From: Candidatus Sulfomarinibacteraceae bacterium | GTDB lineage: Bacteria; Acidobacteriota; Thermoanaerobaculia; Thermoanaerobaculales; Sulfomarinibacteraceae | Assembly (NCBI GenBank): GCA_963796455.1 | Contig: CAWCLO010000010.1 | Span: 384,001 to 448,000, forward strand | Length of the DNA: 64,000 nt | Direction of reading: 5' to 3' | Shown here: positions 13,758 through 54,697 of the stretch, piece after piece | Position numbering within the stretch: the stretch's first letter is position 1 | How the letters are laid out: each line of letters begins with the position of its first letter | Notes under the pieces: model-generated | What the model was told of the DNA's origin: nothing | Seen by the model: the letters and a program-made list of their open reading frames with translations, nothing else | The model's database searches: none | Program-made: the position numbers and the translations under genes

Positions 13758-14184
13758 TTTCCCATGTTTGAAACAAAACCGCTCTTTTCCCGGAGTGAGT
13801 CTCGGAAAACGCACCTGGACAGCGACCGCGGTCGGGGTCAGCGAACAGTAGTCAGCGTCAGGGTTCAGTCATCAGCGGCTGTCTTCAGCGACGGCCTCTC
13901 CAGTACAGATGGCACAAAACGCTCAATTCAGGAAATTGGGTTCAGCAATCGCCAGGTCAATGGCACGGACCTGATCTCTGCCGCTGATTGCTGAATACTG
14001 ATCGCAGTTCCCCGTCCCTGATCCCTGTCGCTGCCGCTGGCGCTGGCGCTGGCGCTGGCGCTGCAATTCGGGCACGGACACGGACGTGGGGCAACCGCGA
14101 ACGGGATATGCCATGAACCAACCCGTTCACTACGTGCTGTCAACCGGGCAACTTGACATGATGATTTGTTTTGGACAAATGTGA
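13758..14184 (-). mobile_element. Copy A of four-helix-bundle-derived TIR-bounded element (most deleted copy)
   Basis: Left end tcacatttgtccaaaaca (14167-14184) matches copy C 15/18; about 110-nt leader shared with copy C; (CGCTGG)4 on + at 14035-14058; frameshifted DQVRA/TWRLLNP remnant at 13928-13976; degraded right end at 13758-13775 aligns to copy B. Confidence 0.65.
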
Positions 14185-14247
14185 AGCACACCGCTGAATA
14201 CAAACCAGCGTCGATCAATCGGCAAACACCTCAAACACCTTTGGGAC

Positions 14248-14276
14248 AAAAAAGAAGGGGGCACCGAAGTGCCCCC
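14248..14276 (-). terminator. Intrinsic terminator of pilin gene
   Basis: Minus strand GGGGGCAC-TTCG-GTGCCCCC followed by TTCTTTTTT, 22 nt after the stop codon. Confidence 0.85.
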
Positions 14277-14298
14277 AACTGAACAGTAGTAGATCCGA

Positions 14299-14766
14299 TC
14301 AGTCGGTTTGGATACCTTCCGGATAGGACACAAAGCTGCCATTCGAGTACACAATGTCGCAATCCATGACGGAGGTGACACGACCGTTGAAGGTCGAGCT
14401 GTCGAGGGCCGCCTCAGTTGCCTTGTCGCGGGTTGCCGACAAGATCGTGTAGAAACGGGATTCGGACTTGGCGTAGAACGTCGTCCGCCAGCCATCCTGC
14501 CTCGGCACTGTCTTCACATAGGTCGGCTCCAGATGCTTCTGGAAGGCCGCACCAATCGCTGCCTCGGTCTGGGTCGGGTAGAAAGCCATATCCACGGCGT
14601 AGGCTTCCACTGAGGTACCAATGGTCCTCATGTCGGCCATCGACCTCTTCTGGCGACCACGGTTAATGGCGTTCAGCAGGTTGGGGATGGCGATTGCGGC
14701 AATAATGCCGATGATCGCCACCACGATCAGCAGCTCGATCAAAGTAAAACCACGATTCTTTCTCAT
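14299..14766 (-). CDS. Type IV pilin / GspG-like prepilin
   Basis: MRKNRG|FTLIELLIVVAIIGIIAAIAIP class III signal with E5; strong AGGAGG RBS; own sigma54 promoter and terminator. Confidence 0.9.
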   Translation of the reverse strand: MRKNRGFTLIELLIVVAIIGIIAAIAIPNLLNAINRGRQKRSMADMRTIGTSVEAYAVDMAFYPTQTEAAIGAAFQKHLEPTYVKTVPRQDGWRTTFYAKSESRFYTILSATRDKATEAALDSSTFNGRVTSVMDCDIVYSNGSFVSYPEGIQTD

Positions 14767-52308: not shown

Positions 52309-52441
52309 TGCGGATCATCCTAGTGCACCGCGCCCGAAATACCTACACCTCCTGAGGCCTCCCGTCAGTGTTGACGCTGCCTCACTCCTGTCCAAGACAA
52401 AACCTCGGAAAGCGAACAAGGGCAGCGACAGCAGACTACGC

Positions 52442-52567
52442 TCACACCTTCGGGTTCAACAGTCGCCAGGTGATGGCACGGACCTGATCGAGCTCGAGCG
52501 CGATTCCTGCTGCTTCGAGGACCTTCGAATAGGCAACGAGGAGGGTGTTCGCGGCGGCGTTGGACAT
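52442..52567 (-). pseudogene. In-frame internally deleted four-helix-bundle gene (41-aa mini-ORF)
   Basis: GGAGG-5nt-ATG; MSNAAANTLLVAYSKVLEAAGIALEL fused to DQVRAITWRLLNPKV, the same C-terminus as copy C. Confidence 0.65.
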
Positions 52568-52571
52568 GGTT

Positions 52572-52633
52572 ACCTCCGGGTCGTTCATGTCCTGACCCAC
52601 CGGCTGCCCCTTCCTGTTGAACGACCCGGAGGT
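52572..52633 (-). promoter_or_regulatory. 16-bp perfect hairpin sequestering the mini-ORF Shine-Dalgarno
   Basis: ACCTCCGGGTCGTTCA-30 nt-TGAACGACCCGGAGGT; the 3' arm contains GGAGG immediately before the ATG. Confidence 0.75.
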
Positions 52634-52879
52634 GGCTATTTCGCCGCATGCACTCCAGACTGCTGCAGCTGCTCTCCGTCGCTGAACACGGACCGCTGTC
52701 CCTGTTCGCTGTTGCCTGTCCCTGACGCTGTACCCTGTCGCTGCCCCGCTAACTGTTGCTGACGATGCCTGAAAAAAGGACCATCCGACTTTGGACTGCT
52801 GACGTTCTTCCCTGTTTTTGCGCCCGGAGGCGCCCGCTGCCCGGGGTACAATCGCGCTGAACCAATCTCGGAGGCAGTC

Positions 52880-54012: not shown

Positions 54013-54032
54013 GGGGCATCCGGTACCCCGCC

Positions 54033-54612
54033 TCACTGCTGTCCAAAACAAATCGTCATGTGGGTTTGCCCGCCTGACAACACGTGGTTTGCGGATCGGT
54101 GTTTGGCATATCCGGTTCGCGGTTGCCCGCGTCCGCGTCCGAATTACAGCGGCAGCGACAGTGTCCAGCGTCAGGGACAGGCAACAGCGAACAGGGACAG
54201 CGGTCCGTGTTCAGCGACAGGGAACAGCGATCAGGAGTCCAGGCGACGACATGGCCACCTCCGGGTCGTTCAACAAAAGGGGTAGCCGGTGGGCGGCCGA
54301 GTCGGTAGCGACCGGTCGAACCACTGGAGAATCGCCTACGCCTCGGCCAAAGAGGTCGACAGCCACTTGGAGCTCCTCGCCCACACGGGGGCGATCAGCC
54401 GGAATGGAGCCAGTGAAGCGATGATGGCCGTCGATCAGGTTCGTGCCATGACATGGCGGCTTCTGAACCCTAAAATGTGAGCGCTGTTTGCTGTCGCTGA
54501 TCGCTGTTCCTGATGACTGAACGCTGCCGCTGACTCCTGCTCGCTGTCGCTGTCCGCCGTGCCCGTCGCTGTCCCTGACAGCTGTCAGAGACCCTGTCGT
54601 GGACATGAGTGA
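54033..54612 (+). mobile_element. Copy C (most complete) of four-helix-bundle-derived TIR-bounded element
   Basis: Left TIR 54033-54050 and right TIR 54595-54612 match 14/18; flanking CCCGCC direct repeat (54027-54032, 54614-54619); CAG-rich 5' arm and CTG-rich 3' arm. Confidence 0.7.
54295..54480 (+). pseudogene. C-terminal half of four-helix-bundle (23S rRNA IVP / TIGR02436-like) protein
   Basis: GRVGSDRSNHWRIAYASAKEVDSHL...DQVRAMTWRLLNPKM resembles the family R.A.GS..E helix; RBS, ATG and N-terminal half are deleted. Confidence 0.65.
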
Positions 54613-54697
54613 TCCCGCCTCATGGGCGTTACGACCGGCAACCCCCCGCAAATCCCGTTCTTGCAGGAGGCGAGGTAGAAAGCGACAGCTGTTTTCT

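Follow-up and report, generated by a model that had tools for sequence, protein, structure and literature searches.

The window analysed here is a 64,000-nucleotide stretch of contig CAWCLO010000010.1 (positions 384,001 to 448,000 of the forward strand; GenBank assembly GCA_963796455.1) from Candidatus Sulfomarinibacteraceae bacterium. Three intergenic segments of the window, designated A, B and C, are related to one another; their alignment spans 657 columns with a mean column identity of 63%. Each segment maps onto a single reference copy of ~853 bp, located at C7:173913-174765 in the window's own genome (denoted G000), which belongs to a soil or sediment acidobacterium and comprises 5,024,069 bp in 10 contigs at 90.5% completeness. 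The common architecture that a sequence-only reading of the window had assigned to the three segments is therefore real. A, B and C are deletion derivatives of the ~853-bp unit and the sole clusters of the family inside the window, and none of them encodes the whole protein. Since the ends of the unit match those of IS4-family transposons, its insertions carry the same 7-bp target duplication, and it has no transposase of its own, the three segments are most probably the decayed remains of a mobile insertion cassette that is non-autonomous and derived from IS4, and that an IS4-family transposase acting in trans is likely to have moved as DNA.

The full unit, bounded by inverted repeats of 18 bp, consists of a left terminal inverted repeat (TCACTGCTGTCCAAAACA), a leader of ~100 nt, a left arm, a hairpin, an open reading frame (ORF), a right arm and a right repeat (TGTCTTGGACAAGAGTGA), in this order. 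Degenerate units of 6-7 nt (CAGCGA, CAGGGA, CAGTGTT) make up the left arm, to which the TCGCTG-rich right arm is complementary. The hairpin spans ~150 nt and is two-tiered; the Shine-Dalgarno sequence lies within the outer stem, formed by CACCTCCGGGTCGTTCA with TGAACGACCCGGAGGTG, and the ATG is paired in a further stem. The minimum-energy fold of the reference copy is a rod of -402 kcal/mol, in which the repeats, the arms and the hairpin are all paired. The full-length ORF of 117 codons scores 57.3 bits against PF05635 (cut-off 33.8) and 60 bits against TIGR02436 (cut-off 24). This PF05635 gene is the only family-matching ORF between the cassette ends and a transposase is absent from the unit, in agreement with the earlier proposal of a transposase-free inverted-repeat element around a four-helix-bundle gene. 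The features of the three copies, in window coordinates, are as follows.

54033-54612, plus strand: copy C, full extent; both inverted repeats survive, as do leader, left arm and 5' hairpin half
54026-54032, unstranded: left target-duplication copy of C, CCCCGCC, equal to 54613-54619 at 6/7 positions
54033-54050, plus strand: left terminal inverted repeat of C, TCACTGCTGTCCAAAACA, an IS4-type end (sequence and end profile)
54051-54146, plus strand: leader of C, conserved among copies (alignments)
54147-54249, plus strand: left arm of C, a degenerate 6-7-nt periodic CAGCGA/CAGGGA array (approximate boundaries)
54250-54300, plus strand: 5' hairpin strand of C (CATGGCCACCTCCGGGTCGTTCA...) over the ribosome-binding site, shortened by deletion (reference 33-312 corresponds to 54033-54300)
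54294-54300, plus strand: junction of the ~256-bp deletion in C at CGGCCGA microhomology (reference 312 to 568 removed)
54301-54480, plus strand: 3' remnant of the gene in C, ~60 codons, ...WRIAYASAKEVDSHLELL...DQVRAMTWRLLNPKM, stop at 54478-54480 (ORF 54289..54480)
54481-54594, plus strand: right arm of C, a TCGCTG-rich array complementary to the left arm (approximate boundaries)
54595-54612, plus strand: right terminal inverted repeat of C, TGTCGTGGACATGAGTGA (sequence and end profile)
54613-54619, unstranded: right target-duplication copy of C, TCCCGCC (sequence)
52382-52802, minus strand: copy B, whole (reference 157-305, 375-479 and 705-773)
52382-52399, minus strand: right repeat of B, good, followed by a short right arm
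52442-52567, minus strand: ORF remnant of B, 41 codons, fused, with the middle of the ORF gone
~52568-52636, minus strand: outer hairpin of B, both strands, inner hairpin deleted, followed by the left arm
~52786-52802, minus strand: left repeat of B, degenerate, with most of the leader gone
13779-14184, minus strand: copy A, whole; reference 40-221 matched, leader and both arms present
14167-14184, minus strand: left repeat of A, TCACATTTGTCCAAAACA (end profile and sequence)
~13937-13975, minus strand: 3' end of the ORF in A, ~40 nt (sequence)
end at 13779, minus strand: right repeat of A, degenerate (11/18 consensus positions by eye)

The deletion in copy C took the inner hairpin, the ribosome-binding site, the start codon and the first ~57 codons. 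The 63-residue remnant scores 23.3 bits against PF05635, below the cut-off of 33.8, and 24.5 bits against TIGR02436, just above the cut-off of 24; the ORF remnant of copy B matches neither family. The two terminal repeats described earlier hold for copy C, whereas the left one in B and the right one in A are degenerate, and the end of A formerly set at 13758 is re-placed to 13779. Likewise, the 5' hairpin strand of C is present as described, whereas the hairpin taken as complete in B is the outer one only. A recognisable target duplication was found neither beside copy B (3/7 positions) nor beside copy A. Among low-depth contigs from public reads, one DNA contig crosses the left junction of copy C with 0 differences and none spans the whole element. 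One metatranscriptome contig covers 54294-54433 of copy C with 14 differences and thus derives from another copy or a relative. We also note a GC-rich hairpin that leads into a run of T (gggggcacttcggtgccccc ttctttttt) at 14230-14290 (minus strand), which lies 3' of a pilin-like gene (14299-14766, minus strand) and upstream of the left end of copy A, and which looks like the intrinsic terminator of that gene.

The family is far larger than the "three copies in 40 kb" noticed at first, and its pattern greatly exceeds what chance would produce. Copy C as the query gives 135 matches in G000, and a 920-nt stretch with a full copy gives 316 high-scoring segment pairs (E<=1e-10). The genome holds 223 BLASTN clusters (E<=1e-6) with a total of 104,878 bp, or 2.09% of its length, and these include 58 intact ORFs. 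More than 90% of the ORF is covered in 65/223 clusters, both ends without the ORF are found in 26, and the remainder are partial, so that 158/223 clusters are without a full ORF. Searches with nhmmer identified 107 left and 167 right ends. The distances between left ends and the right ends closest to them fall mainly into two groups, with 38 at 301-550 bp and 30 at 801-950 bp, separated by 9 at 551-800 bp. Overall, 77/81 left-to-right distances (up to 10 kb) are <=950 bp. Of the only 4 at 951-10,000 bp, two of ~2 kb span separate adjacent copies and the other two measure ~8 kb.

An ORF-less subfamily of 392-496 bp occupies at least 14 loci (for example C7:103304-103760 and C1:92867-93304). In these elements the hairpin and the gene are replaced by a distinct, well-conserved central hairpin of ~95 nt (…GTTGTGGTGTAGGCGTCTCGCC…GGCCGAGACGGCCGCACCACAA…). 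The presence of such elements at this many loci indicates that the gene is dispensable in cis. Together with near-identical copies that lie in unrelated flanks (98.5% identity over 864 nt; 99.5% over 392 nt), they make the mobilisation in trans suggested by the sequence-only reading the best account of the movement. A deletion junction of the copy C type, at the CGGCCGA direct repeat, is present in 6/50 paired copies, which do not form one clade; the carriers need 6 changes on the tree and grouping them is rejected (AU p 0.00015), with the reservation that a tree model would not hold if the copies have recombined with one another. The deletion has either recurred at the microhomology or spread by gene conversion. 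For the same reason, the shared deletion was rejected as proof that dead copies jump.

The target duplication flanking the cassettes has a fixed length. For 77 complete copies, the identity between the two flanks at length 7 is 0.766 compared to 0.458 for shuffled flanks (sd 0.019), and for the 26 sites outside arrays the values are 0.698 and 0.301 (sd 0.037). Among lengths 2 to 12, only 7 peaks. A further 20 complete copies from other public genomes show a mean duplication identity of 0.85. The direct repeat beside copy C, suspected earlier to be a target duplication, is accordingly one of 7 bp with 6/7 matching positions. The coaE-folD interval that holds copy C measures 922 bp in G000 and <=181 bp in the 16 same-genus genomes in which both flanks lie on one contig. 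This comparison, one of the checks proposed for the element, is informative through the interval lengths alone, since the junction is unalignable in 11 relatives that are too diverged and a precise empty site for copy C was not obtained. The fixed 7-bp duplication and the inverted repeats point to DNA transposition and speak against an RNA route.

The duplicated heptamer follows the symmetric consensus T[CG]C[AT]G[CG]A, which fits 38/107 left and 59/167 right flanks compared to 0.74 sites per kb genome-wide. As many as 51/77 complete copies lie inside tandem heptamer arrays, in either orientation. Arrays of at least three units number 234 in G000, of which 99 adjoin a cassette end, and tandem cassettes are separated by exactly two units. 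The other 135 arrays touch no cassette end (for example C1:33289-33337, C1:268004-268024 and C1:390779-390813); many of these adjoin other repeat families with recurring edges ('tcccgagcccgttgccgtta', 'gggagaaagggaga', 'cgtttcggagaaaccgcagatc'). Several elements may use the heptamer arrays as common landing sites. In G014, a different species, an arm-hairpin-gene module without IS4 ends (L034, G014:C8, 1330-2330) sits between inverted AACGTTA-type heptamer arrays, with an (AAATCCG)n array adjoining.

The transposase inventory of G000 consists of one PF01609, one rve and six Y1_Tnp matches. The PF01609 element (C7:291107) is bounded by inverted repeats of 30 nt that are unrelated to the cassette ends, and was ruled out. 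The rve element was ruled out as well; it is an unrelated insertion sequence with a 382-residue ORF (HTH and rve) and inverted repeats of its own, nested in the left arm of a cassette at C3:12441-14172 (L134 ~940-2830), and the host cassette also has the 256-bp deletion. By its appearance alone, we take this nested element to be IS481-like. Cassette ends are found beside none of the four (out of six) Y1 (HUH) transposases that were inspected, and cassettes make 7-bp duplications, whereas single-strand transposition of the REPIN/RAYT or IS200-IS605 type would insert without duplicating the target. Three ORFs of ~340 residues carry an N-terminal Y1 (HUH) domain (C4:1143410-1144448, C4:1146387-1147413 and C8:150795-151803) and none of them lies near cassette ends; two of the three are 3 kb apart and near-identical at the start. 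An origin as a miniature element of the IS630/Tc1-mariner type, to which a likeness of the ends to a Tc1 end had pointed, was ruled out by the absence of a DDE_3 (PF13358) match in G000 and by a duplication of 7 bp rather than TA. The 498-residue DDE ORFs of G004 and G006 contain a weak end-like motif, which is situated inside the ORFs.

A candidate enzyme emerged from another genome. PF01609 was searched across the genus, and the 24 returned loci were scanned with the cassette end profiles. One of them matches (E 0.0008); it is an insertion sequence of 1413 bp in G017 (L137 1015-2427) with the ends ACAGTCTTGTCCAAAAC and GTTTTGGACAGCAGTGT. Its 425-residue ORF scores 251.2 bits against NF033592, 'IS4 family transposase' (cut-off 115), 90.6 against PF01609 and 85.3 against PF14294 (DUF4372), and contains the Y-2-R-3-E-6-K motif by which IS4 transposases are recognised (string YKDRWQIELFFKALK, which belongs to the G017 element and not to the window). 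Positions 2-19 of the left end of the reference copy (C7:173913) are identical to the right end of the G017 element, 18/18. Relatives of the G017 transposase in other phyla end in NCACTGCTGTCC, and 5/10 autonomous relatives with both flanks show a perfect 7-bp duplication. Ten IS4-family loci match 14-19 nt at or beside the left tip of the cassette, nine of them exactly, and none matches farther inside. Target duplications of 7 to 13 bp are listed for the IS4 subgroups (PMC2266710, Table 1). The mobilising factor, formerly left without a name, is thus likely to belong to an IS4-family transposase group, which the ends and the duplication length match. The G017 insertion sequence itself lies between heptamer arrays, (AACTCAA)n on the left (L137 1000-1014) and (TCTTAAT)n on the right (2428-2450).

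The cassette ORF is intact, at exactly 117 codons, in 58/65 ORF-bearing copies, and the mean dN of 0.056 and mean dS of 0.360 give a ratio of 0.156 (1711 pairs, 59 ORFs). The protein clearly mattered during the diversification of the family. G000 contains 70 PF05635 matches in total, including four divergent genes outside cassettes (C4:1278094-1278408, C1:983149-983445, C9:2726-3031 and C10:733004-733315), which score 75-110 bits for the family model as opposed to ~55 bits for the cassette genes. The single match among solved structures is the pentameric XCC0516 (PDB 2gsc, E 0.0014).

The hairpin is conserved and covaries. Among 53 sequences from several genomes, 16/45 pairs show compensatory double changes, only three of which lie outside the variable part of the inner stem. 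Very little variation is seen in the stem that covers the ribosome-binding site or in the GATGTCAAGGG/CCCTTGACATC box of the inner hairpin. G-U pairs and A-C mismatches are both rare, so that the hairpin data do not distinguish the selected strand, or RNA from DNA. No Rfam family reaches its threshold, and the only matches are sub-threshold ones to microRNA-like hairpins.

The core of the cassette (reference 231-714) is present in 20/24 same-genus genomes at ~75% DNA identity. The cargo predates the carrier on which it now travels and is found more widely.

Taken together, the evidence describes a cassette that would be transposed by a cut-and-paste DDE mechanism in trans, with an IS4-family transposase supplied from elsewhere; the family in G000 appears by now to be stranded without its transposase. 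The hairpin would keep the gene untranslated as long as the RNA is neither processed nor melted, RNase III being a possible agent, as it is for rRNA intervening sequences, and the four-helix protein may act in trans on the nucleic acid of the element.

Several observations weigh against this account. A homologue of the G017 transposase is absent from G000 (best tblastn E 5), so the search for an enzyme that shares the cassette ends succeeded in G017 and gave neither such a transposase nor a reverse transcriptase in the genome of the cassettes. The end motif is found at 39 sites in G006, at 18 in G008 and at none in G014 or G004; in G017 its single occurrence is at the insertion sequence itself. 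The two partners are therefore found together in no sampled genome. The G017 insertion sequence is on a contig of 2,977 bp (G017:C434) and is without a matching 7-bp duplication. Cassettes of eight other same-genus species, one locus each, keep the arm, the hairpin and the gene, and IS4 ends are absent from them at <=4 mismatches, which implies that the cargo spreads or persists without these ends. The arms show no copy-specific covariation, with -116.3 kcal/mol for arms of the same copy and -116.4 kcal/mol for arms from different copies (25/30 copies used, five having been dropped for missing anchors, and some right arms cut too long); since arms of the same copy pair no better, the pairing is a family-level property only. 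A promoter scan found no sigma-70-type promoter on the gene's strand of the reference copy. Finally, the constraint on copy-private variants is only mild: of 107 over 58 ORFs, 40 are synonymous and 67 nonsynonymous (pN/pS 0.54). The few private variants and this ratio suggest that the youth of copies or gene conversion, rather than selection at each locus, may account for much of the ORF intactness, and they weaken intactness as proof of such selection.

The end-less cassettes bring up a different reading, in which the hairpin-plus-gene module is the primary selfish unit and spreads on its own, at heptamer arrays or by means of its long inverted arms, with the IS4 ends acquired late, in a single sub-lineage that comprises G000, G006, G008 and their close relatives. 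The presence of the core in 20/24 same-genus genomes, the lack of the IS4 end motif in G014, G004 and the single cassette loci of the eight other species, and the placement of the G014 module between other inverted heptamer arrays are in line with it. However, a mechanism or enzyme for such spread was not seen, and the G000 insertions with readable flanks have IS4-type ends and 7-bp duplications. We regard this reading as possible though on the unlikely side; it is compatible with an IS4-derived cassette moved in trans and does not exclude it. It is distinctly improbable that the four-helix genes are a host family kept for use in the cell, for instance as nucleic-acid-binding regulators, and that the transposon ends are incidental relics of amplification. 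The dN/dS of 0.156 with 58/65 intact ORFs, the conserved and covarying hairpin at the ribosome-binding site and the ~75% identity of the core across the genus speak for host genes, but 158/223 clusters are without a full ORF, all three window copies are dead, the pN/pS of private variants is 0.54, ORF-less forms have also spread, and the four divergent PF05635 genes outside cassettes fit the family model better.

An RNA-mediated route had been raised by the sequence-only reading and is disfavoured here. Here a structured transcript would be reverse-transcribed and reinserted with an Avd-like protein as cofactor, as in diversity-generating retroelements. PF05635 proteins are indeed related to Avd (PMC10053308), and the entire element folds into a rod. 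In contrast, RVT_1 reverse transcriptases gave no match in G000 at its 90.5% completeness, the inverted repeats are defined and the duplication is fixed at 7 bp, the ends are identical to those of DDE transposons, and the leader, which does not look transcribed, has been copied too, as have both ends. This route is accordingly dismissed as highly improbable, and a non-autonomous IS4-derived cassette moved in trans as DNA is preferred.

The closest known system is MIC231, a mobile insertion cassette with IS231 ends in the Bacillus cereus group (cited in PMC2266710). Both have IS4-family ends around a passenger gene, no transposase inside, the duplication length of the parental element and presumed movement in trans. 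The present cassettes differ from MIC231 in that their ends belong to another IS4 subgroup (NCACTGCTGTCC..., 7-bp duplication, transposase with DUF4372), they are far more numerous (223 clusters), they carry a PF05635 gene in a long hairpin as passenger, and the cognate transposase is missing from their own genome. The ORF-less subfamily of 392-496 bp fits the class of non-autonomous, high-copy elements with inverted repeats and flanking duplications, from which the full-length cassette is set apart by its length of 850 bp and by coding for a conserved protein. A related four-helix-bundle fold and family are those of Avd, which serves diversity-generating retroelements as accessory protein (PMC10053308), but with no RVT_1 match in G000 at 90.5% completeness the cassettes do not fit this class of retroelements.

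The cargo resembles the intervening sequences of 23S rRNA. Such sequences with an ORF are described in PMC4990558 for Coxiella burnetii, Leptospira, Brucella and Xanthomonas; the Coxiella element carries an S23p ORF in an inverted-repeat stem with tandem heptamers (GACAGAT) upstream of the ORF and is excised by RNase III. The same source credits Ralph & McClelland 1993 with the proposal that such sequences were mobile elements, with an ORF that helps them to move. Common to both are a PF05635 / S23p gene in a long inverted-repeat stem (the arms lacking copy-specific covariation in the cassettes), short tandem repeats beside the gene (here the CAGCGA-type arms) and poorly accessible translation signals. 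Unlike the intervening sequences, the cassettes are intergenic, outside rRNA, and have IS4-type ends and 7-bp duplications. The single 23S gene of G000 (C10:140644-143654, 3011 nt compared to a model of 2925 positions) gave no BLAST match of the element. The class of the cassette is that of mobile insertion cassettes and the architecture of its cargo is that of an ORF-bearing 23S intervening sequence; the combination is a variant on known kinds. The earlier statement that no formal description exists does not hold for the class, whereas a literature search conducted without supplements turned up no account of an IS-ended cassette that carries a PF05635 gene.

The arrays have parallels too. Heptameric intergenic tandem repeats are described for Xanthomonas and Nostoc (PMC4692102) and as TAACTGA repeats of Beggiatoaceae (PMC4679880), where excision scars of transposons are raised in passing as a possible origin of heptamer arrays; for the repeats of PMC4692102, a general association with mobile elements is not reported. 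G000 similarly has abundant unexplained 7-nt tandem arrays between genes. In contrast to the published cases, the array unit in G000 is the preferred 7-bp target, and the duplication, of a transposon.

In a broader proposal, the gene-in-hairpin module is a free-riding cargo that repeatedly captures the ends of any available transposon, here IS4, turns into a 23S 'intervening sequence' on landing in rDNA, and builds intergenic heptamer arrays by insertion and loss. The arrays are proposed to arise by repeated insertion and loss because the carrier duplicates exactly 7 bp of its preferred heptamer. We advance this generalisation tentatively and consider it unlikely to hold.

To our knowledge, the PF05635 family is widespread and its function is unexplained, and why it is present in rRNA intervening sequences has lacked an explanation from the early 1990s onwards. 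For annotation, ~2% of G000 consists of cassettes, whose copies gene callers will list as separate 'four helix bundle protein' genes. For the biology of the family, G000 offers a free-standing, high-copy population of the gene-in-stem module with readable ends, a set duplication length and an identifiable transposase family, by which the old idea of mobile intervening sequences becomes testable. It also ties a transposon that duplicates 7 bp to arrays of its preferred target, which bears on the origin of bacterial heptamer repeats.

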